From contig CALDHH010000065.1 in assembly GCA_937941575.1 (NCBI GenBank), positions 1 through 46,974 on the forward strand: DNA of 46,974 nt. The letters are read 5' to 3'. The notes beneath the pieces are model-generated. The model saw nothing but the letters and a program-made list of their open reading frames with translations, made no database searches and had not been told where the DNA came from. Shown here one piece after another: positions 7,937-28,434 of this stretch. A program made the position numbers and the translations under genes. The DNA is from an uncultured Alphaproteobacteria bacterium. GTDB taxonomy: Bacteria > Pseudomonadota > Alphaproteobacteria > Micavibrionales > CSBR16-224. How positions within the stretch are numbered: position 1 is the stretch's first letter; every line of letters starts with the position of its first letter.

Positions 7937-8115
7937 GGTTTTTGAAGATAATAATTAGGTAGAGGCAAGAGCTCAATAGCCAGTTTTAAGAGCCTCTCTT
8001 TACCATTATTACGTAGTTTTTCTTTCATAATCACTGAATTAGCTATATGTAACTTTCTTAGTAGCATTAGCGAATAAAACAATAGATGATAAAGATTAAA
8101 CCTAAGGTAGAGAAG

Positions 8116-9123: not shown

Positions 9124-9135
9124 AGATTAGATAAT

Positions 9136-10671
9136 CTATATTATCTCTTTATTATCCATTCTTTTTAGAAATCTTTGACTATTATCTTTGATTGCCTCTA
9201 TCTTCTCTGCATCCATTCTTTCCAAGGATTTATATATTAAGGCAAGTCTATGATTTCCTCTTAACTTACCCTCATTTCTAATTAAAAAATCCCAATATAG
9301 GTAATTAAATGGACAAGCTTCTTGACCATTTTTCTTGGTAACTTTATAGCGGCATGACTTACAGTAATCTGACATTTTATTAATATATGCACCACTTGCT
9401 GCATATGGTTTAGAGCCTAAAAAACCACCATCGGCAAATAATATCATGCCTGTTACATTTGGTAATTCTACCCATTGATATGCATCGGCATAGACAATCA
9501 TAAACCATTCATTAACCTCATCTGGTGAGAGTCCTGATATCAGAGCAAAATTGCCCAAGACCATTAATCTTTGAATATGATGAGCATAAGAGTTTTCTTT
9601 TGTTTCTTTGACGCATTGTTTTAAACAATTCATCTGAGTTGCCCCACCCCAATATAAATCAGGTAAAGCCCTTGTTGCTTCTAAAAAATTATTCTGTTCA
9701 TATTCAGGCATTTTTAGCCAATAAATACCACGTATATATTCCCGCCATCCAATGATCTGCCTTATAAAACCTTCAACTGCATTTAATGGAGCTTTGCCAT
9801 TATTATAAGATTTCTCTGCCAATTTTATACATTCGAGCGGCTCTAATAATCCACAATTTATATAAAAACTAATATGGCTATGATACATCCAAGGCTCATT
9901 TTGAATCATAGCATCTTGGTAATCGCCAAATATCTCTAATCTTTCTGTTACAAATTTATTTAATGCATCTAATGCTTGTTCTCTAGTAACCGCAAAATAA
10001 AATGGAGCTAAATCACCAAAATGATTATCAAATCTTTTAGCAACCAATTCCATGACTTCGTTACTTATATCATCTGGTTCTGAAATATAAGTATCTGGGA
10101 TTACTAGGCCTTCTTTTGGTGGTTTACGGTTATTGCTATCATAATTCCATTTACCGCCCTCTGGCTTATCGCCATCCATTAGAATGTTATATTTCCTACG
10201 CATTTCACGGTAGAAATATTCCATCCGCAATTGCTTACGTCCATCCGTCCAATCTTTAAAATCTGCTTTTGTGCAAAGGAATCTCTCATCAAGCCTAATT
10301 TCTACTGGAATATTAAACCCATCTTGCCATGTTTCAATATCTGCCAAAACTCTATATTCAGATGGTTCAGTTACTATTATTTTATCTATATTCTTCAATT
10401 CAATAATTCTTTTAATCTCAGCTTTAAAAGATCCTTGATTATCTTCTGCATCTAACTTGCGGTAGACTACATTATACTTCTTTGCTTTTAACTCTTCATA
10501 AAAATGACGCATTGCAGAGAATATAAAAGCAATCTTCTTCTTATGATGCCTAACATATGTAGCCTCTTCCCAAACTTCACACATAAAAATTAAATCATTA
10601 TCTATATCCAAATCCGATAGGCTTGATATATTATGGCTTAGCTGGTCGCCAAGAATTAATCTTAAAATCAT
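9136..10671 (-). CDS. Cryptochrome/photolyase of the FeS-BCP class (bacterial (6-4) photolyase, Agrobacterium PhrB / Rhodobacter CryB-like)
   Basis: LILGDQL, HHKKKI, MEYFYREMRR, GFIRQIIGWREY, YAHHIQRLM, KPYAASGAYINKMSDYC. Fe-S cysteines in MNCL, CKSC and ACPF. Confidence 0.92.
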   Translation of the reverse strand: MILRLILGDQLSHNISSLSDLDIDNDLIFMCEVWEEATYVRHHKKKIAFIFSAMRHFYEELKAKKYNVVYRKLDAEDNQGSFKAEIKRIIELKNIDKIIVTEPSEYRVLADIETWQDGFNIPVEIRLDERFLCTKADFKDWTDGRKQLRMEYFYREMRRKYNILMDGDKPEGGKWNYDSNNRKPPKEGLVIPDTYISEPDDISNEVMELVAKRFDNHFGDLAPFYFAVTREQALDALNKFVTERLEIFGDYQDAMIQNEPWMYHSHISFYINCGLLEPLECIKLAEKSYNNGKAPLNAVEGFIRQIIGWREYIRGIYWLKMPEYEQNNFLEATRALPDLYWGGATQMNCLKQCVKETKENSYAHHIQRLMVLGNFALISGLSPDEVNEWFMIVYADAYQWVELPNVTGMILFADGGFLGSKPYAASGAYINKMSDYCKSCRYKVTKKNGQEACPFNYLYWDFLIRNEGKLRGNHRLALIYKSLERMDAEKIEAIKDNSQRFLKRMDNKEII

Positions 10672-10995
10672 GTTAAATTACTTTATTTAAAGGTTATAGA
10701 TATTTATAAGAAATAGACTAGTTTATTCTGCCTGTCTAAACTTATTTATCCAATAAAGCTTTGCGAATATTTTTCTTGCTAGCGCTTGAGCTAACATGTA
10801 ACCGATATCTTTGTTAAGTTAATTTTAAGAATGTTGTAATATTCAGTACAATCTATTTTTACCATATTCTACCTCCCTTCTTAATAAGTAAATAATTAGA
10901 TTTACAAAGAAAGTTACTTATCACTATAATGATCAAATAATTTTTAAATGGTTTTATCCATAGAAAACTCCTCATATTAAAAACAGGTTTAAGAA

Positions 10996-12213
10996 ATGTC
11001 CTTACTATCTCGTAGAGAATTTATAATTCTTATGGCCACATTGATGTCCCTAACCGCTTTATCTATTGATGCAGTTCTCCCAGCCTTTTCTTTTATAAGA
11101 GATGAGTTATCCATCCAATCTGAAAACCATGTCCAATTCGTTGTAAGCTTTCTTTTTGTTGGGTTAATGATCGGGCAATTAGTATTTGGTCCAGTAGCCG
11201 ATAGCTATGGCCGTAGGACAGGAATATTACTAGGGTTAATCATCTTCATAATAGGCAGTTTAATCAGTCTTTTAGCTAGTTCTTTTGCACTTATGCTATT
11301 TGGTCGCCTCTTACAAGGTTTTGGCTCTGCTGCTGCGCGCGTTATTTCCATCGCCATTATTCGTGATTTATATAGTGGTCGTGACATGGCGCAAATTATG
11401 TCTTTCATCATGACAGTATTTATATTTGTCCCAATGTTAGCCCCGGCAATCGGTGAGGCCATAATTACTATTTCTGACTGGAGAATGATTTTTGCCTTTT
11501 ATCTAAGTTATTCTATTCTATTAATTATATGGGTATATAGACGACTAGGTGAAACATTAGCCCCTGAAAAGAAACAAAAGCCGTCTGTTAAAAAGATTCT
11601 AGAAGATTTCTCATATGTTCTCAAAAACAAAATAACCATGGGCTATACTATTATCTCAGGTTTCATCTTTAGTAGCTTTCTTGGATATCTAACTTGCTCC
11701 CAACAGATCTTTCAAGAGTTTTTTAACACGGGGCAGATGTTCTCTGTCTATTTTGGTATTTCGGCTTTTTCAATTGGCTTGGCTTCACTAATTAATAGCC
11801 TCATTGTTAAGCGTTTTGGAATAAAACTAATTTGTACAATTGCATTAACAGGCGTGGTTTTAAGCTCTGCTTTATTCTTATGCATCTATGATCCAACATC
11901 CACTCAGAATTTTATTCCCTTCATGATTACAACATTTATTATCTTTTTCTGTTATGGCCTATTATTTGGAAATATGAATGCATTAGCAATGGAACCAATG
12001 GCAAATCAAGCAGGAACAGCATCGGCAGTAATTGGAAGCCTATCAACTGCAATTGCACTTATTATCGGGGGTGCTGTAATTGGTCAGTCTTTTAATATGA
12101 GCCTATGGCCATTAATGATGGGATTTCTATGCCTATCATTAATCTCACTAATATTGCATATATTTATACAAAGAAAAAAAGTACCTATTAGATTAAGCCC
12201 CTCAAATCCATAA
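10996..12213 (+). CDS. Bcr/CflA family multidrug efflux MFS transporter
   Basis: ALSIDAVLPA, motif A GPVADSYGRR, GRLLQG, IIRDLYSG, PMLAPAIG; about 12 TM segments. Confidence 0.9.
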   Translation: MSLLSRREFIILMATLMSLTALSIDAVLPAFSFIRDELSIQSENHVQFVVSFLFVGLMIGQLVFGPVADSYGRRTGILLGLIIFIIGSLISLLASSFALMLFGRLLQGFGSAAARVISIAIIRDLYSGRDMAQIMSFIMTVFIFVPMLAPAIGEAIITISDWRMIFAFYLSYSILLIIWVYRRLGETLAPEKKQKPSVKKILEDFSYVLKNKITMGYTIISGFIFSSFLGYLTCSQQIFQEFFNTGQMFSVYFGISAFSIGLASLINSLIVKRFGIKLICTIALTGVVLSSALFLCIYDPTSTQNFIPFMITTFIIFFCYGLLFGNMNALAMEPMANQAGTASAVIGSLSTAIALIIGGAVIGQSFNMSLWPLMMGFLCLSLISLILHIFIQRKKVPIRLSPSNP

Positions 12214-12303
12214 TGACATTCTTAACTTAATAAAAACTCTGTACAGAATTTTTGTTTTTAGCTAAGGTTATTTTGTAATAATAACAACTTATACTGGTGC
12301 ATA

Positions 12304-12729
12304 ATGGTTTATAGAATTGTATACATATCGAAAGCTACCCCAAGCCTTGATGATAAAGAATTAGATAAGATTTTAGCATCCTCCCGGAAAAACAACCCTA
12401 AACTAGATGTAACTGGATTAATGCTATTTTTTGAAGGTAGTTTCTTTCAAGTATTAGAAGGAGAGAAGTCTCAAGTTGAAAGCCTATATAGATATATAGA
12501 GTTAGATTCACGCCATATTACAGTTAAAAGATTACAAGAAGGCGAAGTTAGTGGGCGTTTATTCGGAGATTGGAGTATGGCTTACACCCCTATCTCTAAA
12601 CAAGATAAGCAAAAACTTATTGGTGATGGTGATTTTTTTAGTAAGTTCTCACCATCTAATAGTTTAGATGTAGACACCAAATCATTAACAACATTTATTG
12701 CGAAAATGGTTGAGAAAATGATACGCTAA
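12304..12729 (+). CDS. Stand-alone BLUF domain blue-light sensor
   Basis: IVYIS (Tyr), SRKNN, VTGLML, FFQVLEG (Gln), DSRH, RLFGDWSM (Trp/Met). Confidence 0.93.
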   Translation: MVYRIVYISKATPSLDDKELDKILASSRKNNPKLDVTGLMLFFEGSFFQVLEGEKSQVESLYRYIELDSRHITVKRLQEGEVSGRLFGDWSMAYTPISKQDKQKLIGDGDFFSKFSPSNSLDVDTKSLTTFIAKMVEKMIR

Positions 12730-12764
12730 AGCTAGCTTAATACAAGATTATTATTTAATACTAT

Positions 12765-13490
12765 TTATAATTTTATATTATAGCCATGAGATATTTCAGG
12801 CTGACATCCTTTAGCATTTAGATTTGTCTCTTTATCATTATCTTCCAAGAACCCAGATAAAATTGACTTATATAAGCTCACCTTATTTTGATTTCTATCC
12901 CCAATATCATAATCCCCCAGATTACCTTCTCTACAGTTTAGATAATAATCTGTAATTATTGTCGCTTGCTGTTCATGATTATAATCTGTTAGTTTTTTTC
13001 CTTCTTCTAAAACATAGCTATAGGCTGATGTTTCAGTAAATCTTGTTTGAAAACTATGCTTCATTGAACTTAACATTGATAAATCAATATTATTTTGATA
13101 CTGCCAAATATGGGCTATTTCATGTGTAAATATCTCTTTATAATAACTATTTGTAGCACTAAAATCTTCTATACCAATATATTTAGCATCCATTATCACC
13201 GTATTACCCATCGCCTGAGCCTCTGCACCACTAGTTAAGCGATAATATGAGGAAGCATTTTTGGATTTACTAATTCTAATTTTATCATAATCTAAACTAT
13301 CCTTAAATATGGATTTAAGCATCGATATTTCATTATCATTTAAAGCTCTTTTATCAATCAGCTCTGGTATAATATATTTCATAGAACTAAGACCAACAGA
13401 TACCAAGAAAGCAACCCGCAAAGATTTAGCCATCCAGTTTGCATCTCTGGATGTTAAAACATTAAATACTTTGCTTAGAGTTTTTTTCAA
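12765..13490 (-). CDS. Putative zinc metallopeptidase (HExxH; DUF4157-like) with N-terminal membrane anchor
   Basis: LNDNEISMLKSIFKDSLDYDKIRI, FTHEIAHIWQYQ and downstream NHEQQA. TTG start preceded by AGGAG. Confidence 0.7.
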   Translation of the reverse strand: MKKTLSKVFNVLTSRDANWMAKSLRVAFLVSVGLSSMKYIIPELIDKRALNDNEISMLKSIFKDSLDYDKIRISKSKNASSYYRLTSGAEAQAMGNTVIMDAKYIGIEDFSATNSYYKEIFTHEIAHIWQYQNNIDLSMLSSMKHSFQTRFTETSAYSYVLEEGKKLTDYNHEQQATIITDYYLNCREGNLGDYDIGDRNQNKVSLYKSILSGFLEDNDKETNLNAKGCQPEISHGYNIKL

Positions 13491-13556: not shown

Positions 13557-14942
13557 TCATATCTCTTTCTTAGTTTTTCTATAAAATGTTGATTTGGCCA
13601 TGCCTAATGATAATGCAGTTTGGGTTATATTATTATTGTGATTTAATAGGCTCAGCTTAATAACCTCTTCCTCTATCTGTTCCAATGTTTTTTGGTAGCC
13701 ATTTTCATTAAGAATAGAGATGTAATTCTTATTTTTCTCGACATCAATATTACTGATATTAACATTTGGTAACTCATAGAAGTCCTGAATATCTAAGATA
13801 TCATTATCAGATAGTACGATTGCTCTATGGATTGTATTTTCAATTTCACGGACATTACCTCCCCATTCCCATGTTTTCAGCATGTTAATGGCCTCATCTG
13901 AGATATCTTTTAGCTCTTGCCCTTCAATTACAGTAAATCTTTCAATGAAATGATAAATCAGCTCTGCTATATCTTGTCTTCTATCTCTAATTGGTGGGAT
14001 GTTAATTGGTAATACATTAAGTCTGAAATATAGATCATCCCTAAATCTACCTTCCATCACCTCGGTATCTAAATTTTTATTAGTAGCAGATATTATTCTT
14101 ATATTAACAGGAATTGAACTTTGACCACCAACTGATGTTATCTCTTTTTGCTGTAACACTCTTAATAACTTTACTTGAGTATCTAATGGTAACTCCCCCA
14201 CTTCATCAAGAAATATTGTGCCTCCTTCTGCTTCCCTGAATTTACCAATTGATTTGGCTATCGCACCAGTAAATGACCCTTTTTCATGGCCAAATAATAT
14301 ACTTTCCACTAAATTCTCTGGAATTGCGCCACAATTGACTGCAATAAATGGCTTACCAATTCGGTTACTTTCGCCGTGGATGGATTTTGCAAAAACCTCC
14401 TTACCAACACCGGTTTCTCCAGTTAGCAATACAGGTATATCCGCAGATGCAGCTTTCCTACCAACCCCAATTACCTTAGATAAGCCTCCTTCATGGCCTA
14501 TCATTTGTTTAAAGCTATATACTCCATCTTCCTGCTTTTTTAATCTATTAACTTCTTTTTCAAGTACACTTATTTTAAGAGCATTTTTGATTGAAACTTG
14601 TAGACGACCAGGTTCTGGTGGTTTATTTAAAAAATCACTAGCCCCCAATTGCATTGCTTGGACAACTACATTAATATCGGAACTACCCGTCAACATAATA
14701 ACTGGTAAATCAGGATATTGCTGTGACATGATCCCCAATACTTCCATACCGTCCATATCAGGCATATATATATCCAATATCACCAAACGAATTTCTTTAT
14801 TTTGATCTTGTTTTACAATATCTAAGCCAGTTTTTCCACCATCGGCTTCTACAATCTGATAACCAAGTTTATTCTCTAATAAACCCCTTATCATCTTTCT
14901 TTGCATTTTATCATCATCAATTAATAGAATTTTGATACTCAT
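13557..14942 (-). CDS. Sigma-54-dependent response regulator (REC-AAA+-HTH, NtrC family)
   Basis: REC (LLIDDD, ILDIYMPDMDG, FLNKP); GETGVGKE, NCGAIP, GSFTGA, FLDEVGE, FRDDLYFRLNV, WGGNVRE; Fis-type HTH. Start moved to ATG 14942, which follows GGAGG. Confidence 0.95.
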   Translation of the reverse strand: MSIKILLIDDDKMQRKMIRGLLENKLGYQIVEADGGKTGLDIVKQDQNKEIRLVILDIYMPDMDGMEVLGIMSQQYPDLPVIMLTGSSDINVVVQAMQLGASDFLNKPPEPGRLQVSIKNALKISVLEKEVNRLKKQEDGVYSFKQMIGHEGGLSKVIGVGRKAASADIPVLLTGETGVGKEVFAKSIHGESNRIGKPFIAVNCGAIPENLVESILFGHEKGSFTGAIAKSIGKFREAEGGTIFLDEVGELPLDTQVKLLRVLQQKEITSVGGQSSIPVNIRIISATNKNLDTEVMEGRFRDDLYFRLNVLPINIPPIRDRRQDIAELIYHFIERFTVIEGQELKDISDEAINMLKTWEWGGNVREIENTIHRAIVLSDNDILDIQDFYELPNVNISNIDVEKNKNYISILNENGYQKTLEQIEEEVIKLSLLNHNNNITQTALSLGMAKSTFYRKTKKEI

Positions 14943-15004
14943 ACATCCTCCAAACCTCGTGCATAAAGAATAGAAGACAAAGATTAACATTCCTAAAACA
15001 AACC

Positions 15005-15047
15005 GTATCAAAATGAGAAATCGACCATAATAATCTCATTTCGATAC
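15005..15047. promoter_or_regulatory. Inverted repeat, candidate enhancer (UAS) for the adjacent enhancer-binding protein
   Basis: GTATCAAAATGAGA (15005-15018), 15 nt, TCTCATTTCGATAC (15034-15047); 13 of 14 positions match. Centred about 100 nt upstream of the predicted sigma-54 TSS. Confidence 0.65.
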
Positions 15048-15149: not shown

Positions 15150-16037
15150 ATGTTAGTTACATTAGAAAATGCAGAACAAGTGCTCATGGAGAAATCAGAA
15201 GAATGCCATAACATGGGTGGTGAATATAAATCTGTACATTTAGAAATGTCTAAACTAGAGCAACTATCAAATGGCTATGATTTAAATAATCTCTGTATTG
15301 CAATTAACAGCCTTATATTAGACAAAGATAGTAATGTGATAGTCTGCCAAGATAGCGATATATTTATCATTACAAAATTTATCAATCAAAACATGACGAA
15401 TAAATTAGAAGTAACTTTATCTGAATTAATGGATATCAGTAAGGATATTAGATTTGCAAAGCTTTACGAGATAAACCATGACTGGGATAGTTTGGTAGAA
15501 GTAATTAAAAGCAAATTGGCTCAAGCCGATGACACGGTTGCCGAGAAGAAACCAACCTTAAGTAGTGATGATATATTGCATCTTAATAATAAAATGAGAA
15601 TTTTAAATAAATCAGTTAGTAAGATATTGATTGAGCAATTAGAAACAAAAAGAAAAAATAGAAGCTCTATTGAAATATTATTAATTGAAGATGACCTATT
15701 TTCAACCACTCTTATTAAAAGAGCAATCCAAAAAGAATATAATGTATCAAGCGCGGAAGATGGTGAAAAAGGAATATTAAAATATTTTATAACCGCCGCA
15801 GATATAATGTTCTTGGATATTGAATTACCCGATATTAATGGGCATGAAATATTAGCCAAAATATTAAAACATGATCCAAATGCTTTTATTGTAATGCTAA
15901 GCGGGAATGGTAATAAAGAAAATATAATGAAAGCAATGAATAGCGGTGCTAAAGGGTTTATTGCCAAACCCTTTACCAAAGATAAACTTGACTTATACGT
16001 ACAGAAAGCCTTGAACCACTCAAAATTAAGGAGATAA
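15150..16037 (+). CDS. Response regulator: unknown N-terminal domain plus C-terminal receiver domain
   Basis: C-terminal ILLIEDD, MFLDIELPDING, VMLS, GFIAKPF. Confidence 0.85.
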   Translation: MLVTLENAEQVLMEKSEECHNMGGEYKSVHLEMSKLEQLSNGYDLNNLCIAINSLILDKDSNVIVCQDSDIFIITKFINQNMTNKLEVTLSELMDISKDIRFAKLYEINHDWDSLVEVIKSKLAQADDTVAEKKPTLSSDDILHLNNKMRILNKSVSKILIEQLETKRKNRSSIEILLIEDDLFSTTLIKRAIQKEYNVSSAEDGEKGILKYFITAADIMFLDIELPDINGHEILAKILKHDPNAFIVMLSGNGNKENIMKAMNSGAKGFIAKPFTKDKLDLYVQKALNHSKLRR

Positions 16038-16040
16038 TAA

Positions 16041-16880
16041 ATGGAATTTATAATCAGCGACATCGAAAAGAACTTATTTAATATAATTCAATCTATCAAA
16101 TCTGATCCAGCAAGCTGGGAAGATTGGAAATGTTTGCAGATAAAGATACCTGATCTATATAAAAACTCTGATAATATGGAGATAAGGCAGAATATAAAAG
16201 CTATAATTCATAGCCGTTTTTCAGAAAAAAAATGCAGTGTCTTCTTCCTAGGCTTAAAAGAAATATTTTTATTCTGTAAGCTACCAGAAGATCCCGATTT
16301 TACAGAGGTAACCAATAGTATTACTGACCTATTTAGTAAAAAAGATAAAAGCCTTATAGAGTTTAAAATAATAAATATTTCAGAAGAGCCTAATTTAATA
16401 GTGGATGAATATACTCTAGATGATTTTATGCTTTCACTGACATCAATCAGCTATGATGAAAGTTTTAAAAATAGCTTGGATCTAGTCGAAAATAACGAAA
16501 GGTCACATAATAAAGGATCAAATCCTAACCTAAAGAAAGTCCTGTTGGTTGAAGATGATGCATTATCTAGATGGATGGTTAGAAAATCTATTAAAGATGC
16601 TTGTGATCTAGTCACCGCACAGGATGCAAGACAAGCTATTTCTCTATACCAAAACTATAAACCAGATATGGTGATATTGGATATAAACTTACCTGATGGA
16701 TCAGGAAAAGAAGTTCTAAAAGATATGTTAGAGCAAGACCCAAAGGCTTATATAGTAATGTTTAGTAGCCAAGACACTGCATCAAATATCGCAGATACCA
16801 TGGATAAAGGAGCAAAAGGTTTTATTGCCAAACCATTTAAGAAAGAGCGATTATTTGAATATATAAATAATTGTGCTTAA
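16041..16880 (+). CDS. Response regulator: unknown N-terminal domain plus C-terminal receiver domain (paralog of the upstream gene)
   Basis: VLLVEDD, VILDINLPDGSG, VMFS, GAKGFIAKPF; same architecture as 15150-16037. Confidence 0.85.
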   Translation: MEFIISDIEKNLFNIIQSIKSDPASWEDWKCLQIKIPDLYKNSDNMEIRQNIKAIIHSRFSEKKCSVFFLGLKEIFLFCKLPEDPDFTEVTNSITDLFSKKDKSLIEFKIINISEEPNLIVDEYTLDDFMLSLTSISYDESFKNSLDLVENNERSHNKGSNPNLKKVLLVEDDALSRWMVRKSIKDACDLVTAQDARQAISLYQNYKPDMVILDINLPDGSGKEVLKDMLEQDPKAYIVMFSSQDTASNIADTMDKGAKGFIAKPFKKERLFEYINNCA

Positions 16881-16911
16881 GAAATAAATTTTTAATGAAA
16901 TCGGGTGAAAA

Positions 16912-18909
16912 ATGAGAATTAGTATCAAATACAAAATGATTATTGCTATGTTTTTCTGTACTGCAGTAATTATATTAGATTTAATATACATAGACCACTC
17001 ATTAAAAGAAGGTTTATCTTTCTTAAATAGTCAAAATAACTATATTCAAAGCATAGGAATAGATAGCAATCCACATTTAAACAAAATAAGCATAGATACC
17101 GAACATGCAATATTAAATGCCAATGATACTTTATCTTTAATTAATAAGATATTTTATATCGTTATAATCCTATTCATCATTACCATCTTATATTTGCTTA
17201 AAGCCATCATAATCCCACTTAGTACAGTTACTGAGAATCTTGTAAAAATATCACATGGTGATTTAGATGTAGATATCCCAGATAATATAAGAAATGATGA
17301 AATCGGTCAATTGGCTTTGGCATCTAAGATCTTTGTTGATAAGGCCCAGAAAGCCCTAAAACTTGATGAAGCCGAATTAGCAAATAAAGCAAAGTCAGAA
17401 TTTTTAGCTAACATGTCGCATGAATTAAGAACTCCAATGAATGGTATAATTGGTATGAGCAACATGATGAAAGAAACTAATCTTGATGATGAACAAGTAG
17501 AATTTACAAATGTTATCGATAACTCAGCCCGTAGCTTATTAGTTATCTTAAATGATATTTTAGATTTATCAAAAATAGAAGCTGGAGAATTAAGCATAGA
17601 GAATGACGTCTTTGACTTACATCTTTCTATATCAGAAGTATCAGAAGTATTTGTTCCATTAGCCAAAGAAAGAGAAATTGATTTAAACATAGAGGTTAAT
17701 AGCAACCTTCCTAAATTTGTCGAAGGAGATGTCGGGCGCTTTGAACAGATCCTAAGGAATCTATTGAGTAATTCTTTAAAATTTACTCATGAAGGTCACG
17801 TAACCATAAAAGCAGATTTTCTAGAAGATAATATTTCTATACAGGTGATTGATACAGGTATCGGTATACCAAAAGGTCAAATTGAACAAATATTTGGTAA
17901 ATTTAACCAAGCAGATAATGCCAGCACAAGGACATATGGTGGCACAGGATTAGGACTAGCAATTAGTCAAGAATTAAGCGAACTTATGGGAGGGAAGATA
18001 GGCGTTCATAGTGTAGAGAATGAAGGCTCTTGTTTCTGGTTTAAACTTCCCCTTGAGGTCAGAGATGATGTAAGCGAATTAGTGAATAAATTCGCCCCTC
18101 CCCTAATTGATTTAGAAGAAAAAGAAGTTGAGTTAAGATCTAAAAACGTAAAAATACTATTAGCAGAAGATCACCCAACCAATCAATTATTGATGAAACG
18201 ACTATTACAAAAGCTTGGTTTTAATGATGTTCTACTAGTCGAAAATGGTATCGATGCTCTAGAGCTATATAAAACCGGAGAATATGACCTAATCCTAATG
18301 GATTGCCAAATGCCCTTGATGGATGGTTATGAAGCCACTAGAGAGATTAGGATGATTGAGAAAGATTATGGCGGTCATATTCCTATCATAGCAATCACAG
18401 CCAATGCTATGCTTGGGGATAAAGAAAAATGTTTAAAACTTGGTATGGATGGATATGTTAGTAAGCCAGTAGATAAAGATAAATTGCATGCAGCAATTGT
18501 AAAGCAATTAAGAAAACCATCTAGCGGCACTAATCATATTGATACGCCTGATAGACCGATTGTGGTTTCAAATGCCGATGACCCCGTTGATTTAGAAAGA
18601 TTGGTTATATTCACCGATGGAGATTTAGAATTTGAGAAAGAATTATTTGCAATATTCTTCGAGCAATCTGAACTTAACCTAATAGCCTTACAAGATAGTA
18701 TTGACGATCCAAAGCAATGGAAGTCCCATGCTCATAAATTCAAAGGTTCTGCGGCAAATTTAGGTGCAATTGAGCTATCTGATTTATCTTACGAAGCAGA
18801 AAATGGATCAGAGCTAAGTTCCGAAGATAAAAGTTTTTTATTATTAGCTATGAATAAAAAATATCTTGAAGTAAAATCTTTCTTAGAAAAAAGAATAATA
18901 GAAGGATAA
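16912..18909 (+). CDS. Hybrid sensor histidine kinase (2 TM-HAMP-HisKA-HATPase-REC-Hpt)
   Basis: RNDEIGQL (HAMP), [59 protein letters not shown] (Hpt). Confidence 0.95.
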
Positions 18910-18913
18910 AAAA

Positions 18914-19282
18914 ATGGAAAAGACCTTATATGAAAGAATTGGCGGAGAAGATGCTGTTAAAGCAACTGTGACCAAACTATATGGTAAGCTTTTAACCGAT
19001 AATCTTCTAAGCGATTATTTCGATCCTGAGCGAGTGGATATTTTAAAAACAAGCCAGATTGCATTTATAACAATGGCCTTTGGCGGTCCCCATAATTACA
19101 CTGGTCAAGACTTAAGAAAAGCCCACGCCCCTTACGTTGCTCAAGGAATGTCAGACATACATTTCAATGCAGTAGCAGAACATCTACAAGAATCCATGGA
19201 AGAGCTGAATGTAGATAAAGACTTAATACAAGAAGCCTTGGCTATTGTTGAGACCACTAGAAATGATGTTTTAAGTAAGTAA
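18914..19282 (+). CDS. glbN: Group I truncated hemoglobin
   Basis: TLYERIGG, B-helix LYGKL, AFGGPHNYTGQDLRKAH (proximal His), HFNAVAEHL. Confidence 0.9.
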   Translation: MEKTLYERIGGEDAVKATVTKLYGKLLTDNLLSDYFDPERVDILKTSQIAFITMAFGGPHNYTGQDLRKAHAPYVAQGMSDIHFNAVAEHLQESMEELNVDKDLIQEALAIVETTRNDVLSK

Positions 19283-19310: not shown

Positions 19311-20465
19311 TTAAATTTTAGGGTCTTTATTAGACAATTTTCTATTAGGCTTGTCCGAACTGTCATTGTTATCAGCGACTACAAAACTAGAAGATTTAAT
19401 GGAGGTATCCCGCATTTTCTCTGCATCAAAATAAGCGCTTGCTACCCCCCCAGAAGCATCCTTACTCAATCTATCTAGAGTTTCAAAACCAGAACTTCCA
19501 GGATTGCTTAATTCTTCATCTATTCTATTTTGAATATCTTCCATTTTTTCATCCATAGACAAATAATCTCTTATATTATCAACCGCCATACTAATGGGCA
19601 AAGCCACTATTGCTGCTACTGCAGTTACACCTAGTCCTCCGACAACAGTGTTTGATAAAACCTGTGTTGCCGGTTCACTGGCAACATTTGCTAAGGCTAT
19701 AAAACTAACTGCACTTACTCCTAATGACGCGGCTCCAGTTTTAAGAACTTTATCAAAAGCAGAGTTACTTTGGCTAAACTCCAGTCCTTCACCTTTATCA
19801 ACATCAAGGCTATCAAAAGCAGAATTCTTACTCATATTGATACTGGGGTCAGTTAAAATACTCTTTCTTTCTTCTAAAAGTGTAGTGATTTTTTCTACAG
19901 CTTGATCGTTATTCTCCGGAGCTGTAAAATCACTACTTATTTCCAAAGAGAATGAATTGCTAATCAACTCGTTCTGAGCATGCAGAACCTGAGCATGAAT
20001 TTGTGGCCCCAGCTGCTCTAGATGTTTGTCTTCCAATAATACCAGAACAGATAAATCATTTGCATCATTTACAGGTGAATTCATACCGTATTTATCATTA
20101 ATAGAGTTAATAAATTCTTCAATCTGTATTTCCTTTAGCTTATCAAAGCATGGCTCGACAGCTTCCATCACCTCCTCTTGCCTACTAGAAGAAGCAAACT
20201 TAGTAATGAAAGAGGATAGAGTTGTTGATAGAGCTCCCATTGTTACACTAAGAACAACGGAACTAACACTGGAAGTTGCAACAACACCTGCACCTAATGC
20301 AGCAAGAGGGGCTACCATAGCGGTAACTCCCAATGCCAATGCGGCAACACCAGCCCCAAAGGCAATATTAGATCCTTTATTTGATATTCCTTGTTCTTCA
20401 GCTTTTGTAACGCTAACTCCTGAGGTTAAATCAGGCAGTTCTATATTATTTATAGTATTGTCCAT
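19311..20465 (-). CDS. Hypothetical acidic protein with two long Gly/Ala/Val-rich hydrophobic hairpins
   Basis: 384-aa ORF with AAGGA SD; hydrophobic stretches at about aa 34-87 and aa 243-296; no recognisable catalytic motif. Confidence 0.7.
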   Translation of the reverse strand: MDNTINNIELPDLTSGVSVTKAEEQGISNKGSNIAFGAGVAALALGVTAMVAPLAALGAGVVATSSVSSVVLSVTMGALSTTLSSFITKFASSSRQEEVMEAVEPCFDKLKEIQIEEFINSINDKYGMNSPVNDANDLSVLVLLEDKHLEQLGPQIHAQVLHAQNELISNSFSLEISSDFTAPENNDQAVEKITTLLEERKSILTDPSINMSKNSAFDSLDVDKGEGLEFSQSNSAFDKVLKTGAASLGVSAVSFIALANVASEPATQVLSNTVVGGLGVTAVAAIVALPISMAVDNIRDYLSMDEKMEDIQNRIDEELSNPGSSGFETLDRLSKDASGGVASAYFDAEKMRDTSIKSSSFVVADNNDSSDKPNRKLSNKDPKI

Positions 20466-20891: not shown

Positions 20892-20996
20892 TACTAATCC
20901 AATATACTCAAAGCTCTTATTCTCATTATAGGTTGTAAATATTGTAGTTTTTATTTATATTTCATTGGCGATTTAAAGATGCTGATGAGAGAATTA

Positions 20997-22100
20997 ATGA
21001 TGAGAAATGTTTATATAAATAGCTTTGGTTCTTTCTTGCCCAATGATCCTGTTAATAATGCTGATATGGAAGAATATCTTGGCTTTATTGGCGGTAAAAA
21101 ATCAAAATATAAACCTCTCGTCTTAAGGCAAAATAGGATAAAATATAGGCATTACGCATTGAATAAAGATGGAGAACAACAATATTCAAGCTCCGAAATG
21201 GCAGCGCTTGCAATTAAGCATGCAGTTAATAATTCTGAAATTATATTAAGTGATATATCTTATTTAGGATCCTCCTCAACCCTTGGAGATTGCTTGGTTC
21301 CGGGATTGGCATCACATATTCACGCAGAGCTAAATATTAAGCCAATTGAAATTGCCAATTTTCAAAGCGTCTGCGGTAGCTCAATCATGGCTCTTAAATC
21401 TGGCTATCTCCAGATTGGATCAGAAGAGCATGATTACGCTGCAATTAGCGGTTGTGAATTTGCCAGTAGATATTTTAGACCTGGCTTTTACGAAGATAGT
21501 AATGAATTTTTGGAAAATGGAGAAATTGATATAAACGCAGATTTCCTCCGTTTTACATTATCCGATGGTGCAGGAGCTTGCATTTTAGAGAGTAAACCAA
21601 ATACCCATTCCAGATCTTTAAAAATTAACTGGATTGATATTAAATCATATGCGGATCGTTTTGATACTTGCATGTCAGCTGGTGAGGGCTGGAGTAATCA
21701 GGCAAGCACAATGGATGCAGTTAAAAATGGTAGTTTAATTTTAAAACAAGATTTTAGCCTATTAAAAGAAATGATCCCAGTTTGGGTTTCACATTATCTT
21801 GACTTAATTGATCAGGATAAGATTAATGTCGATGAAATTAAATATTTTTGTAGCCATTACTCCGCTCATTCTTTAAAAGAAGAAGCAATAAATGTTTTAA
21901 AAACCACAGGTTCAATGATTACTGAAGATAAATGGTTTAGTAATCTATACAGCAAAGGCAATACAGGAACTGCATCAATTTTTATAATATTAGAAGAGCT
22001 TTATAATAGTAAAGAATTGAATATTGGTGATAAAATTCTATGTCATGTTCCAGAGAGTGGCAGATGTTTAAACGGATTAATGATGTTAGAGGTAGTATAG
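20997..22100 (+). CDS. KAS III-type beta-ketosynthase, StlD/DarB-like
   Basis: FLPNDPV..MEEYLG, RHYAL, SVCGSS (Cys), DFLRFTLSDGAGA, CSHYS (His), KGNTGTASI (Asn), VPESGR. Start is 20997 or 21000. Confidence 0.85.
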   Translation: MMRNVYINSFGSFLPNDPVNNADMEEYLGFIGGKKSKYKPLVLRQNRIKYRHYALNKDGEQQYSSSEMAALAIKHAVNNSEIILSDISYLGSSSTLGDCLVPGLASHIHAELNIKPIEIANFQSVCGSSIMALKSGYLQIGSEEHDYAAISGCEFASRYFRPGFYEDSNEFLENGEIDINADFLRFTLSDGAGACILESKPNTHSRSLKINWIDIKSYADRFDTCMSAGEGWSNQASTMDAVKNGSLILKQDFSLLKEMIPVWVSHYLDLIDQDKINVDEIKYFCSHYSAHSLKEEAINVLKTTGSMITEDKWFSNLYSKGNTGTASIFIILEELYNSKELNIGDKILCHVPESGRCLNGLMMLEVV

Positions 22101-22102
22101 AG

Positions 22103-22771
22103 ATGAATAATAGTAAAGAAGTAATGCGCAGCTTAATTAAAATATGGACAGATTTTGATACTAGCTTAAATAAAGTTCCAATTTTAGATAAATTAAACAG
22201 AAAAAAATTCAGAACTGATGATTATAAATTATTATTAATCAATCAACGTCAACAAGTTGTAGAAGGCTCCAGATGGATTGCCAGAGCAGCATCTAGTATT
22301 GATAGAAATTACCTAGAGCAAAGATCCATATTTATGAAACATGCCATCACAGAGCATAAAGATTATAAAATGCTTGAGAATAACTATGTTTCAATCGGTG
22401 GAGAGCTATCTGATATTCAAAATGCAGAGAAAAATATTGGCTCTGAAGCACTGCATGCATTCATGTATCAGAGAGCAAGTGAGACCAATCCATTTGATCT
22501 ATTAGGTGCAATGTTCATTATTGAAGGATTAGGAGAAAGAAAAGCAATTAAATGGGGTGAGGCCATAAAGAAACAGCTAGACCTGAGCGAGAAACAAGTT
22601 AGTTTTTTAATCTATCATGGTGAGAATGACGAAGATCATATGCGAGAATTTGAAGAAACCCTAAATTCAGGAATATTAGAAATTCCAGATATGGGAAAAA
22701 GAATAGTAAAAACAGCTAAAATAGTTGCAAGACTATATCAATTGCAATTAGAGGAAATCGGCAATGTCTAA
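22103..22771 (+). CDS. Heme-oxygenase-like diiron oxidase (iron-containing redox enzyme, PqqC/CADD-like fold)
   Basis: Appears all-helical; candidate metal ligands in QVVEGS, HAITEHKDY, FIIEGLG and YHGENDEDH (HxxxDxxH). ATG lies 2 nt after the ketosynthase stop. Confidence 0.8.
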   Translation: MNNSKEVMRSLIKIWTDFDTSLNKVPILDKLNRKKFRTDDYKLLLINQRQQVVEGSRWIARAASSIDRNYLEQRSIFMKHAITEHKDYKMLENNYVSIGGELSDIQNAEKNIGSEALHAFMYQRASETNPFDLLGAMFIIEGLGERKAIKWGEAIKKQLDLSEKQVSFLIYHGENDEDHMREFEETLNSGILEIPDMGKRIVKTAKIVARLYQLQLEEIGNV

Positions 22772-23666
22772 AAAAGCCGCCAAAGGTAAGAAATTTGTAG
22801 CAGCCCATAACCAAAATGATCCGGATCCATGGGAAGCATTATTACTTGATAAATCAACATTTATATCTATAGAAGCCAAAGCAGCTTTGATGAGAAATAA
22901 TGGAAGCAGATCTAGACAATATTTATTACCAATCGTTAGATTTCTCGCAAGATTATCTATTATACTAGTACAATTATTACGAATAATAATTCCTAATAAG
23001 ATGACTTCATCCAAGATATTGCACGGGCTTATCTGTTGGGGAGTTAAGAATTTTGTCAGCCCAGATGCTGCATATCTAATATTAAGGCATTTCAATATTG
23101 GTACTCAGATTTTAACATTTTTAAATAAAAACATTGCTGATGGAGAACTTCCATCTGTCCCTCTAAATCCTTGTAATATTTCAGATTTAGGTGGCAATAC
23201 TTTTGTTCAGCATGATTTGAATTTATATAATTTTATCATTTCATTGAATCATTACTTAGAAGAAAATAATAAAGATATCATCTCAATTCCTTTTGATAAA
23301 ATTGACTTTTCAATGATTAAAGACTTTGATGATCAGTTAGAAGAATTACCAAATAAATGGCATAATTTCATAGACCTTCAAACTGCCATTGAATTATACA
23401 CTCCATTATTTGGCCTATTTTTATCTGATAAAGATTTCTGGCGTGCAAGTAATTCATTACAGCTTGATGAAACAATGGCAATCTATGTCGCAAAACTATT
23501 AAAACAAGATTTTATATTATCAATAGTCAGCAATAAACACCCAATGGTACCATTAGCCACTTTAGAATCTGGCTTTAGATTAATGCTACACGGTGTAGAT
23601 GCTGAGAATCTTTATGGTTTCATTAAATATATCAGAGATAATGGGGATGATTTTAAGGCTTTGTAA
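22764..23666 (+). CDS. Conserved hypothetical protein (DUF6999-like)
   Basis: DPDPWEALLLD, SRSRQYLLP, LILRHFNIG, FVQHDLNLYNF, RASNSLQLDET, NKHP, RLMLHG..E. Overlaps the upstream gene by 8 nt. The DUF name is from recall. Confidence 0.65.
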   Translation: MSKKAAKGKKFVAAHNQNDPDPWEALLLDKSTFISIEAKAALMRNNGSRSRQYLLPIVRFLARLSIILVQLLRIIIPNKMTSSKILHGLICWGVKNFVSPDAAYLILRHFNIGTQILTFLNKNIADGELPSVPLNPCNISDLGGNTFVQHDLNLYNFIISLNHYLEENNKDIISIPFDKIDFSMIKDFDDQLEELPNKWHNFIDLQTAIELYTPLFGLFLSDKDFWRASNSLQLDETMAIYVAKLLKQDFILSIVSNKHPMVPLATLESGFRLMLHGVDAENLYGFIKYIRDNGDDFKAL

Positions 23667-23718
23667 AGGGTATGAAATAATCATTTATTATAAAATAATT
23701 ATTTATTACATCATCTTA

Positions 23719-24289
23719 TTACTCCAAACATTTAGGCATCTCATCAATCGTAAATAGCAAAGGCAGGTCTCGCTCATGATATGTCGTGTGGTATGGAACC
23801 CAACTTGATCCATTATCAGTACTCCATTCAGCACGAACATCTTCCCATTCGAGGTTGTTTTGAACTGTACGTATAAGCCTCCAGGAACTTTGAAAAGGAA
23901 GCATTTACATTAAAATCTGCTCCTGCTGTTGCAGAGAATTCCATATAATATGTTTTAACCAACTGAAAGAGTAACCTTTGTACTAAGATCATTATATTGC
24001 CAGACTCTAGACTGCTTATCCCTCTAATTATTCCACAATTACCTACATGATAGCAACAACTTCAGTTAATAGAGGGGCATCTAGTATTACCCAAACCATA
24101 GGCAACACATGTGCAATAGGGGAAACCTTGAACTCCTCTGTCACATCTGCTTTTTATATCAGCTGGATAGCTCATATATCTATTCCTCCAAGATACGGGA
24201 TCAATCCCAAACCTTATAGAGCGCTCTCTTGCCACAGGACCCTTACTGACCCACCACTGCTGGAGAAAAAAATTAATATAGACAAACAA
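23719..24289 (-). pseudogene. Probable fragmented gene for an extracellular protein
   Basis: Short same-strand fragments in different frames: Cys-rich RCDRGVQGFPYCTC, VKTYYMEFSATAGADFNVNASF, and Asp-box-like WSTDNGSSW. Composition looks coding and less AT-rich than the local intergenic DNA. Confidence 0.45.
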
Positions 24290-24359
24290 AAAATATATTT
24301 TTATACATAGATCATTACTATTTCATCATTTAATTAAAGTTAAATCATAAATTACAAAT

Positions 24360-26062: not shown

Positions 26063-27577
26063 TCAAAATTCAAATTTCTTCCTATGTTTAGCCTCCTCTT
26101 GACTGGCATAGTCGCCACCAGTTTGTAAAATCTTTATAACATCTTTTAATCTTTCTTCTTGGGCATTATCTTTATACTCATCATAAGCAAAGATTAATGA
26201 ACCACCAAGTAAAGCCCAGCATAGAGTAGCAGATATATTTTTCACTCTATTATTAGCCTGCGCTAAAATACCACATTTTTCTTTAGCTTCATCTTTTTGC
26301 ATATCTGCACTATCTCTTTCCTTAAATAATCTATCAATCAGCTTATTGCTGTCACTAATTGCACGACTATACTCTTTCTCATATTCAGCCCTAAGTTCTA
26401 TTTTTAAGTTCTTAGATATCTCGAAAGTTGAATTCCTAATTGCAGTTTCTAACTCATCTACTAATTCTTTATAATGTCCACTATCTTTACTAGAAACCTT
26501 AGAGGCATTTTCACAAGCTCGTTCAAATGCTTCTTCTTTTGTAAGCCTCATTACTCCTGAATAATAACTAGCAAGGTTATCTACACTACCAATATTTTCG
26601 ACTATCTTTACAAGTTTTTTACTATGCTCTTCTAATGAAGATAATTGACCTTGTAACTCTTCTGCTCTTTTGGATGAAACAGCATTTTCACATTCTGCTG
26701 CCATGGATTTATCTAATTCTATTCTAGATTCTTCAAGCTGTTTAAATAATTGTTTTAATAATGTGCCATCTTTATCATCAATTCTATATTTTGATGCTTC
26801 TAAATATTTTGAGAATCCTATAACAGCCTCTTCTATTTCTGTAATTTGGGAAGAAAATCTACTGCTATGCTCATTAATAACACTATTCTGAGCTTTTAAT
26901 AATGCTTTATTTTCTTTGCTTTGCTCATATCTTTCAGTATTTGTGTCATAACCGATTACTTTTAAAACTTTATCAATTACTCTTTCTTTTAATTTCTTAC
27001 CTTTATTAGAATCGCTACCTAAAAACTTGCTATATTCTGTATTTAAAGCATCACTATATAAACTATCTGTAATTATCTGACTATTATTAGCAACCAAACT
27101 GGTCTTCTTTAAAAAATCTTCTATTAACTGCCTATGGCTATTCAAATTTTCAAAAAATTCTAATGAATCATCCATGTCAAGATTAGAGTATTGTTGGATT
27201 TTAACTATAGTTCTTAAACGTTCAACTTCTTCAACTAGCAACCCTTCTGCTTCTTTTAGATCTTCATTCGCCTGTAATAACTGTTCAACCTGTTCTTCAT
27301 CAATACCGCTATCAGAAGAGCTTGATATTTGTTCAAGCAAATAACTATAAGTAATAAAATTTTCTTTTCCTGTTAACTCTTCATAAGTCTTATTAATATC
27401 TTTTATTGTTCCATTAAGGCTTTTAAAAGCATTTATTCTTTCTTCAGGATTATCTGTATCTAGCATCCTAAATACTTTATCAAATTTACCTAAACGGTTT
27501 TCTAGGAATTTGTTAAGCTCTGCTCTACGTTCTTCGCTAAGCTCTGGAATATTAGAGTTTTCTTCTTGATCAGACAT
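26063..27577 (-). CDS. Hypothetical coiled-coil protein with a C-terminal transmembrane segment
   Basis: E/K/L-rich heptad-like sequence; TM ISATLCWALLGGSLIFAY; strong SD AAGGAGA; starts 23 nt after the vWA gene stop. Confidence 0.75.
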   Translation of the reverse strand: MSDQEENSNIPELSEERRAELNKFLENRLGKFDKVFRMLDTDNPEERINAFKSLNGTIKDINKTYEELTGKENFITYSYLLEQISSSSDSGIDEEQVEQLLQANEDLKEAEGLLVEEVERLRTIVKIQQYSNLDMDDSLEFFENLNSHRQLIEDFLKKTSLVANNSQIITDSLYSDALNTEYSKFLGSDSNKGKKLKERVIDKVLKVIGYDTNTERYEQSKENKALLKAQNSVINEHSSRFSSQITEIEEAVIGFSKYLEASKYRIDDKDGTLLKQLFKQLEESRIELDKSMAAECENAVSSKRAEELQGQLSSLEEHSKKLVKIVENIGSVDNLASYYSGVMRLTKEEAFERACENASKVSSKDSGHYKELVDELETAIRNSTFEISKNLKIELRAEYEKEYSRAISDSNKLIDRLFKERDSADMQKDEAKEKCGILAQANNRVKNISATLCWALLGGSLIFAYDEYKDNAQEERLKDVIKILQTGGDYASQEEAKHRKKFEF

Positions 27578-27600: not shown

Positions 27601-28434
27601 CTATTTTGAAAGAGATACATTATTATTACGAGCATCTGTTAATTTTAACTGCTTCGTAATTGCTAATGCAGCTTTACTACTACTTGCAAGCTTTTTAAGT
27701 GCTTTATCACCACCACTAGTATAAGTAGCAACAGCAGTACATAGATCTTGTAGCTTCATATCTGAGCCAAAGCTTTCAAAAGCACCGCCAGTAATTTTGG
27801 CAAACATTTCATATATTTTTGCACCATTCGCTGCATCATCACCAGTTTTAGTATCTTCGTGGAATGCAAAAACCTTAATTCCTGCTGCTCTTAACTGATG
27901 AGCTGCTTGTAATACAACTCTTTCATTCTCTTCACAACAATCTCCAATCATAATTATATTTTTAGGCTTATGCCCTTTTGGATCATTTAAGATTTTTTGA
28001 ACAGATTCATATATTTGTGTATGCCCCATTTGGCAAGACACAGCTGACATTTTACCTATAATATCTTCCGGGTTATTACTCCAACCTAAATCAGAGACTT
28101 CCAAACCGCCAAAATACACAACCCGAGCAGATAAGGAATCGCCGGCATCATGGACTGTTGTAAACATGTCATTTTGAATTCTTGTAGCCTCATCCCAAGT
28201 CTTAGATCTACTAGCCGTTGCATCAATTATATATGCAAGATGGCCAATATCACCTTGTTCGTTTTGAGATTTTTTTAATATATCCATAGTTTTATTGTCA
28301 ATGGCAGACCCCGCAATTGAGCTTTCTAATCTTCTGCCTAAATCTGTTTTATTCTTACTGGCCGGAAGACTAAGGCCTTTATTATTACTATTATTCTTCT
28401 TACCACCAGTCGTGACTAGGTCCTTTATTGACAT
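27601..28434 (-). CDS. von Willebrand factor A (vWA) domain protein
   Basis: MIDAS-like YIIDATASR, GHTQI, IMIGDCCEE, FAKITGGAF; SD TAAGGAGA. Confidence 0.85.
   Translation of the reverse strand: MSIKDLVTTGGKKNNSNNKGLSLPASKNKTDLGRRLESSIAGSAIDNKTMDILKKSQNEQGDIGHLAYIIDATASRSKTWDEATRIQNDMFTTVHDAGDSLSARVVYFGGLEVSDLGWSNNPEDIIGKMSAVSCQMGHTQIYESVQKILNDPKGHKPKNIIMIGDCCEENERVVLQAAHQLRAAGIKVFAFHEDTKTGDDAANGAKIYEMFAKITGGAFESFGSDMKLQDLCTAVATYTSGGDKALKKLASSSKAALAITKQLKLTDARNNNVSLSK

Follow-up and report, generated by a model that had tools for sequence, protein, structure and literature searches.

The DarAB(C) and StlCDE systems are the dialkylresorcinol and stilbene pathways of Pseudomonas, Chitinophaga, Photorhabdus, and Eikenella, and dialkylresorcinols and cyclohexanediones serve bacteria as signals, antibiotics, and membrane or pigment components. 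To our knowledge, all characterized routes pair a DarB/StlD ketosynthase with a DarA/StlC aromatase. In the consulted sections of a 2019 review, the ketosynthase is described as forming a carboxy-cyclohexanedione from two acyl thioesters, one beta-ketoacyl and the other alpha,beta-unsaturated, with decarboxylation accompanying aromatization by DarA/StlC (PMC6836626). The cyclohexanedione acid intermediate also decarboxylates spontaneously, according to an excerpt of a further study (PMC13748660). Here, we describe a locus in which a DarB/StlD-like ketosynthase (KS) is encoded with a heme-oxygenase-like diiron oxidase (HDO) and a protein of the DUF6999 family. It lies on a 46,974-nt contig (CALDHH010000065.1; the whole of this stretch is referred to as the window) from an uncultured alphaproteobacterium of the Micavibrionales, one contig of a 1.96-Mb assembly that is 94% complete. 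The three genes are as follows:

20997-22100 (+): KS, DarB/StlD-like ketosynthase, 367 aa; an alternative upstream ATG at 20979 is open
22103-22771 (+): HDO, heme-oxygenase-like diiron oxidase, 222 aa; PF14518
22764-23666 (+): DUF6999 protein, 300 aa; PF22523

The KS stop codon (TAG, 22098-22100) is followed after 2 nt by the HDO start codon (ATG, 22103), with a GAGG motif 10 nt before the latter. The DUF6999 start codon (ATG, 22764), preceded by AGAGGA, lies ahead of the HDO stop codon (TAA, 22769-22771), an overlap of 8 nt. The spacing given in the first-pass annotation of this DNA, made from the sequence alone, is therefore exact by the start and stop coordinates of the three open reading frames (ORFs), and the three genes are translationally coupled. 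G+C content across the region (32 to 34%) is the same as that of the surroundings, and the nearest public relatives of the window gene are in metagenome-assembled genomes (MAGs) labeled Micavibrio and Rhodospirillales. A search of sequencing runs for this DNA listed no RNA run; its single good DNA match carries the label marine metagenome and may be the source sample. Upstream, two genes on the opposite strand encode proteins of 109 and 384 aa with no Pfam matches; downstream, approximately 690 nt with broken frames only are followed by an SBBP beta-propeller gene, also on the opposite strand.

The trio resembles the DarAB/StlCDE systems in several respects. Its KS belongs to the same superfamily branch, has StlD as its closest solved structure, and retains the catalytic triad, and the genes form a small cassette that would draw acyl thioesters from primary metabolism and in which an oxidative step is expected after condensation. 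In contrast to those systems, the KS scores below the family cutoff and falls in a separate clade, and its partners are an HDO, often fused to it, and DUF6999, a protein unrelated to DarA. As the first-pass annotation had reported, no darA, acyl carrier protein (ACP), or acyl-ligase gene adjoins the trio in the window, as judged from the ORF list and family scans; nor does a DarG or DarH gene, both of which occur in some true dar loci.

No aromatase was found in the remainder of the assembly either. Eight of nine true darB loci contain a conserved neighbor of approximately 305 aa (alignment A2), which was taken as DarA from its position, size, and conservation only, no named model having matched it; one of the eight gives a weak flavodoxin-like signal. 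A profile of A2 retrieved no DarA-like match from the window's genome (94% complete), and no DarA-like gene is adjacent in any annotated trio locus. Two candidates were rejected: DUF6999 as a DarA homolog (hhalign against the A2 alignment, probability 0.5%, E 0.12) and NF053538 as a possible DarA model, which represents another family and matches nowhere. In the samples searched, one KS clade is partnered by DarA-type and the other by HDO/DUF6999-type cassettes, with no overlap.

Linkage and fusion of the three genes

DUF6999 was found in 7 of 41 related genomes and, above the cutoff, in 6 of 401 genomes sampled evenly across the phylum, where a seventh match (21.5 bits) fell below the cutoff. 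Among 14 control genomes, only Caulobacter vibrioides gave a DUF6999 match, and it has a match for the KS as well. Approximately 17 kb around each genome match was searched by tblastn with the three window proteins. The order KS-HDO-DUF6999 on one strand was seen in all 11 distinct genome places with enough flanking sequence (L004, L018, and L020 to L028; L002 is the same place as L020 and was counted once). Where contig ends cut the loci (L019 and L003), adjoining parts of the trio are still visible. A metagenome scan gave 452 DUF6999 relatives, of which the best 80 were kept. Upstream sequence of at least 2300 nt was available for 40 loci, and in 39 of these KS, HDO, and DUF6999 follow one another on the same strand.

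Two plasmid-borne copies extend this picture. The Pseudoalteromonas sp. THAF3 megaplasmid (L127) harbors the same trio with the same 8-nt overlap and a DUF6999 protein that is 27% identical; its genes are annotated as "beta-ketoacyl-ACP synthase III," "iron-containing redox enzyme family protein," and "hypothetical protein." A decayed trio, in which the HDO is split and DUF6999 incomplete, lies next to a cytochrome P450 on the Nostoc flagelliforme plasmid pNFSY08 (L128, 4825-7453), where no feature is annotated. The linkage of the three genes is far beyond chance, and the same order recurs across Alpha-, Beta-, and Gammaproteobacteria. The neighborhood survey proposed in the first-pass annotation, which looked for co-occurrence or fusion of the three families, was thus positive: the trio is conserved at the 11 genome places and 39 of 40 metagenome loci, its order is kept, and KS-HDO fusions are present.

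In five genome loci (L004, from a Methylotenera MAG, and L024 to L027), KS and HDO form a single ORF of 626 to 658 aa containing both Pfam domains, with the HDO domain C-terminal to the KS. A protein search with the L027 fusion retrieved at least 120 KS-HDO fusion proteins. The named carriers among the matches listed belong to Comamonas (testosteroni, thiooxydans, terrigena, and others), Delftia, Variovorax, and Corticibacter, and their product names are generic. Of 39 metagenome trios, 21 encode KS and HDO as a fusion (called when no stop separates the two tblastn matches and both lie in the same frame) and 18 as separate genes. Fusion of KS to HDO is therefore abundant and solid. Because the trio is inherited as a unit and KS and HDO often constitute one polypeptide, the two proteins act in the same pathway, very probably in succession.

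DUF6999 was found joined to its partners in two sequences. One came from a search for DUF6999 proteins of greater length, which gave two hits: P0391 (698 aa) is a single ORF in which the C-terminal portion of a KS is followed by a complete HDO and a complete DUF6999. The other, the fragment P0272, joins HDO to DUF6999; being single sequences, they are weak evidence for DUF6999 fusion. The second hit, P0392 (905 aa), was a candidate for a fusion of all three; its homologous parts are separated by sequence that is out of frame, and it was not counted, as it looks like a frameshift artifact.

The three proteins

The KS, a ketosynthase of the thiolase fold, scored 340.8 bits against NF005293 (StlD/DarB family beta-ketosynthase; cutoff, 450) and 302.8 bits against NF053539 (DarB; cutoff, 550), reaching neither cutoff, and only about 60 to 70 bits against FabH models (59.7 on the fabH model). 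The closest solved protein is Photorhabdus StlD (5gk0), matched over its full length at E 9e-68; the next is a FabH, at E 1e-4. The Cys-His-Asn triad (C126/H287/N322) described as intact in the first-pass annotation is invariant in 25 of 25 trio KS proteins and, in a larger alignment, in 30 of 30 trio KS and 9 of 9 DarB proteins; C126 aligns with the active-site Cys of StlD. R185, S289, and G324, which are common to DarB and trio KS and absent from FabH, are kept, whereas at least 29 of 30 trio KS proteins have R158, F160, A241, and G245, residues that never occur at these positions in DarB. E154 was also considered as a DarB/StlD-specific base and rejected, as the genome's own FabH has a Glu at this position.

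Scores on the StlD/DarB model are bimodal across the 401 genomes, with nine at 537 to 608 bits and six at 302 to 344 bits. The six low-scoring genomes are exactly the six with DUF6999, while the nine true-DarB genomes lack it. A quick maximum-likelihood tree was built from 40 sequences (30 trio KS, 9 DarB, and the genome's own FabH as the outgroup). The trio KS proteins all fall on one side of a branch (Shimodaira-Hasegawa-like approximate likelihood ratio test [SH-aLRT] support, 82; branch length, 0.55), with the nine DarB proteins apart, and the 18 KS proteins encoded by separate genes form one clade (support, 100) among fused forms. The description of this protein as DarB/StlD-like holds for its closest relative and its triad; by profile score and tree placement, we assign the KS to a sister clade of DarB/StlD and not to the family itself.

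The HDO matched PF14518 (Haem_oxygenas_2) at 35.1 bits (cutoff, 28.9). Its AlphaFold model (predicted local distance difference test [pLDDT], 94.4; predicted template modeling score [pTM], 0.90) superposed best in Foldseek on 3dde (template modeling [TM] score, 0.84) and chlamydial CADD (CtCADD; TM, 0.82 to 0.83), followed by UndA (TM, 0.71 to 0.74), and less well on TenA proteins and heme oxygenases. Profile and predicted fold agree in making it a member of the seven-helix heme-oxygenase-like fold family. The E/H/HxxxDxxH ligands recognized in the first-pass annotation were borne out: E54, H80, E84, D87, E141, H172, D176, and H179 are present without exception in the 11 sequences aligned, which include five fused C-terminal domains at 29 to 34% identity. 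H172, D176, and H179 make up the HxxxDxxH motif, and the set comprises three His and at least three carboxylates.

CADD (Chlamydia CT610) is a self-sacrificing para-aminobenzoate synthase that is not known to have a KS partner, and UndA is a stand-alone enzyme whose substrates are free C10-C14 acids. CADD and 3DDE (Shewanella), the latter a protein of no known function, are the best structural matches to the HDO model. UndA has no sequence-level match to the window HDO, which is coupled or fused to a KS; the two nonetheless appear to share a fold class and a 3-His/3-carboxylate-type set, and a carboxylic-acid lipid substrate is plausible for the HDO. In the consulted part of another paper, the ligands of the HDO MboA are listed as E86/H89/E143/H172/D176/H181, MboA and "most other HDOs" are described as having three His and three Glu/Asp, and UndA and BesC are said to couple desaturation to the loss of CO2 or NH3 (PMC13185094). 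By analogy with MboA, the putative metal ligands of the window HDO are H80, H172, H179, E84, E141, and D176.

The third protein matched PF22523 at 358.3 bits (cutoff, 27) over profile positions 1 to 271 of 275. "DUF6999-like," its earlier designation, named the right family and understated the relationship, as the protein is a full-length DUF6999 member. A word-indexed search retrieved 3219 relatives at E <= 0.001; of the 120 that were listed, those with names bear either "hypothetical protein" or "DUF6999 family protein." A profile search of 1.84 billion representatives gave 417 clusters at 50% identity, including many fragments. In 21 divergent members, no match to a further Pfam family, HD-domain and ferritin-like dimetal proteins included, was detected at E <= 10. 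An NCBIfam scan and PDB sequence searches returned nothing, and an ESM Atlas search with homolog P0022 gave no usable match.

Across the 21 divergent members, R108, H109, P136, H150, D204, D235, H276, and E281 are invariant down to 22% identity, and D151, R51, P56, P77, N123, and S231 are kept in at least 90%. The His-containing motifs listed in the first-pass annotation (LRHF, QHD, NKHP, and LHG..E) are all present in the window protein; as only those eight residues are invariant, H259 of NKHP is not universal. Seven of the eight are polar or charged and sit on five different predicted helices, and the three His and three carboxylates among them have the composition of a putative dinuclear metal site. 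The structural model (pLDDT, 87.4; pTM, 0.87) is all-helical, with seven long helices among 14 helical elements. Foldseek retrieved no PDB chain at E <= 0.001 (the best being ferritins, E 0.19 and TM 0.13), and an exhaustive VIA alignment to 48,161 representative chains gave none at Z >= 5; the best score, 4.5 for G-protein-coupled receptor bundles, lies within what the tool itself gives as noise for helical proteins. The model thus predicts a confident fold without a detectable PDB relative, and together with the eight invariant residues this makes the protein look enzyme-like. Finally, the window protein has a single hydrophobic stretch at approximately residues 50 to 78 (Kyte-Doolittle 2.0 over 19 aa), and a hydrophobic 19-residue segment occurs at approximately positions 40 to 80 in 19 of the 21 sequences listed (Kyte-Doolittle 1.4 to 2.7). 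This conserved hydrophobicity suggests membrane association.

Proposed pathway and alternatives

We propose, at a probability of roughly one-half, that the trio is one biosynthetic cassette, a DarA-independent variant of the cyclohexanedione/dialkylresorcinol route in which the HDO oxidizes the KS product and DUF6999 is a third enzyme. By homology with StlD/DarB, the KS would join two fatty-acid-derived acyl thioesters from primary metabolism, for example a beta-ketoacyl and a 2-enoyl thioester, in a head-to-head condensation whose product would most likely be a beta-keto acid of the carboxy-cyclohexanedione type. The HDO would take this labile carboxylic acid directly from the KS and oxidize it with O2 at its diiron site; the spontaneous decarboxylation described in the excerpt cited above (PMC13748660) would give a rationale for fusing the HDO to the KS. 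The reaction we favor for the HDO is an oxidative decarboxylation/desaturation of the UndA type, which, via beta-hydrogen abstraction, could yield an aromatic resorcinol in one step. Such an aromatizing decarboxylation of the carboxy-cyclohexanedione, perhaps replacing DarA/StlC, is put forward tentatively; it would explain the absence of DarA. DUF6999 may then be a membrane-associated helical-bundle enzyme with a metal site formed by three His and three Asp/Glu (plus Arg), modifying the ring or chain in one more obligatory reaction (for example, a hydroxylation) or mediating release or transfer into the membrane. Accessory enzymes (desaturase, fatty-acid hydroxylase, P450, and LplT/Aas-like proteins) would tailor the product or feed the pathway according to lineage, the window representing the minimal core, and the end product would be an oxidized lipid or lipid-derived signal.

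On this reading, the trio would represent a second and widespread arrangement, with an HDO and DUF6999 in place of DarA/StlC as the partners of the ketosynthase and the coupling often covalent. HDO enzymology would gain a lipid-type substrate class, for which the natural KS-HDO fusion is convenient for biochemistry, and DUF6999 would gain a testable role. A metabolite not previously known is also indicated in tractable organisms, namely Caulobacter vibrioides (DUF6999 and KS) and Comamonas testosteroni (KS-HDO fusion). A bolder version, which we consider doubtful, is that DUF6999 founds a new class of membrane-associated helical-bundle dinuclear-metal enzymes in obligate complex with KS-HDO, a compact two-oxygenase machine by which bacteria such as Caulobacter, Comamonas, and Micavibrio-like predators would convert ordinary fatty-acyl thioesters into new oxidized cyclic lipids or signals. 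The first-pass annotation had envisaged a pathway making an oxidized lipid or signal from fatty acids, and this is partly supported. Neither a characterized pathway nor a paper matching the trio was found: in a literature search that covered subscription journals thinly, no paper mentioned DUF6999 or linked a KAS III/DarB-type KS with a heme-oxygenase-like enzyme.

Several points weigh against the proposed route. We infer every chemical step of it. Because the KS is below the family cutoff and forms its own clade with R158 and the other clade-specific residues, it may not make a cyclohexanedione; the main split in the tree has only moderate support (SH-aLRT 82 in a quick search), and the outgroup branch is very long. 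The review sections consulted note that some cyanobacterial DarB homologs occur without DarA, may not make carboxy-cyclohexanediones, and have unknown end products (PMC6836626). The trio is similar to these in combining a DarB-like KS with the lack of an aromatase, and its decayed copy lies on a Nostoc plasmid; HDO and DUF6999 partners are not named in those sections. For the HDO, PDB sequence and profile searches matched no characterized HDO (none to CADD at E <= 10) and found only the uncharacterized Shewanella 3DDE (profile E 1.9e-13), and its predicted fold is closer to CADD than to UndA. DUF6999 also occurs outside the trio: L005 has a frame-broken DUF6999 alone, with no KS or HDO within 6 kb, and the one exceptional metagenome locus, L056, has an apparently intact orphan with neither partner within 7 kb. 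Lastly, a sigma-70 scan gave 18 promoter-like sites against 21.1 expected from shuffled sequences, and no terminator was found.

The alternative that survives best, which we regard as unlikely, retains the cassette and changes the condensation to one of the OleA, pyrone-synthase, or beta-keto-acid type, with the HDO decarboxylating or desaturating a linear product to a ketone, alkene, or enone lipid. The position of the KS outside the curated StlD/DarB family would fit this, as would its clade-specific R158, F160, and G245 in the active-site region and the suspicion voiced in the consulted review sections that DarA-less DarB homologs make no carboxy-cyclohexanediones (PMC6836626). The HDO fold is, moreover, similar to that of UndA, and desaturase and hydroxylase neighbors suit long linear chains. 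Yet StlD is by far the closest solved protein to the KS (E 9e-68 versus 1e-4 for FabH), and the DarB residues R185, S289, and G324 are kept, which favors the cyclohexanedione-type condensation.

A similarly unlikely alternative concerns DUF6999 alone and overlaps the proposed scheme in the KS and HDO steps. Here, DUF6999 would be an obligatory but noncatalytic accessory of the KS-HDO enzyme. It might serve as a scaffold or membrane anchor, accept or export the product, or load, reduce, or stabilize the notoriously unstable diiron cofactor of the HDO. Its one conserved hydrophobic helix, its lack of detectable enzyme relatives, and the translational coupling of its gene to the HDO gene, with single ORFs spanning both, are all compatible with such a role. 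A precedent for a dedicated HDO partner is MboB, the partner of MboA, in the consulted part of PMC13185094; MboB, however, is a reductase of the flavin/Fe2S2 type, and a cluster-binding Cys motif is missing from DUF6999. Seven of the invariant residues of DUF6999 are polar or charged (three His and three carboxylates among them), lie on five helices, and persist down to 22% identity; such a pattern is expected in an active or metal site more than in a scaffold, in line with DUF6999 as a third enzyme.

It is far less probable that the HDO acts before or independently of the KS, supplying an unusual starter or substrate or, as a CADD-like self-sacrificing enzyme, an aromatic acid used by the KS. 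While the HDO fold is as close to CADD (TM, 0.82 to 0.83) as to anything characterized, there is no CADD sequence match at E <= 10, and the HDO domain lies C-terminal to the KS in the fusions. Housekeeping fatty-acid synthesis by a FabH paralog with unrelated neighbors, as public annotation of the fused protein as "beta-ketoacyl-ACP synthase III" might imply, is very improbable given a true FabH elsewhere in the window's genome (441 bits on the fabH model, versus 59.7 for the trio KS), the patchy distribution (7/41 relatives and 6/401 phylum genomes), and the strict linkage to HDO and DUF6999.

Neighboring genes and other features of the window

Genes of lipid metabolism recur beside the trio in other genomes. 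Eight loci have a gap of 818 to 880 nt between HDO and DUF6999, and in the three that are annotated (L065, L117, and L082) this gap contains a PF00487 fatty-acid desaturase; a FA_desaturase gene is also found upstream in L111 and in the Comamonas locus L027. A PF04116 FA_hydroxylase lies directly upstream in L004, L027, and L066, and L022 and L044 have a P450 gene immediately downstream, whereas that of L057 is upstream and divergent. An LplT/Aas-type protein, combining major facilitator superfamily and acyltransferase (with or without AMP-binding) domains, is encoded directly downstream in L053 (7852-11265) and L094 (3739-5625), and the corresponding functions are present as separate genes upstream of the trio in L018 (13501-16784). 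The occurrence of LplT/Aas in three unrelated arrangements hints that lysophospholipid or acyl-ACP metabolism feeds the pathway or receives its product, and the Aas-like neighbors indicate that an acyl-activating function is sometimes recruited. Additionally, an EamA transporter is located downstream in L018 and an alpha/beta hydrolase near L004 and L050. Taken together, the recurrent desaturase, hydroxylase, P450, and LplT/Aas neighbors indicate a hydrophobic, fatty-acid-derived product. The window's genome itself has no FA_desaturase and a single FA_hydroxylase, on another contig.

Other neighbors appear in individual lineages. On the THAF3 megaplasmid, hypothetical proteins of 185 aa (4648-5205) and 634 aa (7852-9756) are encoded on either side of the trio in the same direction, separated from it by 1 and 26 nt, and may be further cassette members in that lineage. 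The trio of L027, from a Comamonas-type genome, lies beside genes for SCO1, heme O synthase, SURF1, and COX3 involved in cytochrome-oxidase biogenesis (8953-13345), and a heme O synthase gene (14743-14819 of L127) is located approximately 7 kb from the Pseudoalteromonas trio; this proximity may be a coincidence.

The genes that flank the trio in the window (upstream, those for two-component and globin proteins; downstream, those for SBBP, coiled-coil, and von Willebrand factor A-like proteins) are not conserved beside it elsewhere. Between the DUF6999 stop codon and the SBBP gene, 23700-24330 (-) holds degraded ORF pieces in three frames, one with an Asp-box-like STDNGSSW motif, and is probably a pseudogene remnant. 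Upstream, 15150-19282 (+) encodes two proteins with C-terminal receiver domains and a hybrid histidine kinase (HAMP, HisKA, HATPase, receiver, and Hpt), and a truncated bacterial globin gene starts 5 nt after the kinase stop codon; the run may form a phosphorelay linked to O2/NO. The gene for a stand-alone BLUF blue-light sensor (12304-12729, +) lies near that for a sigma-54-dependent response regulator (13557-15011, -). Three proteins gave no Pfam match at E <= 0.001, namely those encoded at 19311-20465 (-; 384 aa), 26063-27577 (-; 504 aa), and 27601-28434 (-; 277 aa), and the 504-aa protein has a charge-rich, coiled-coil-like sequence.

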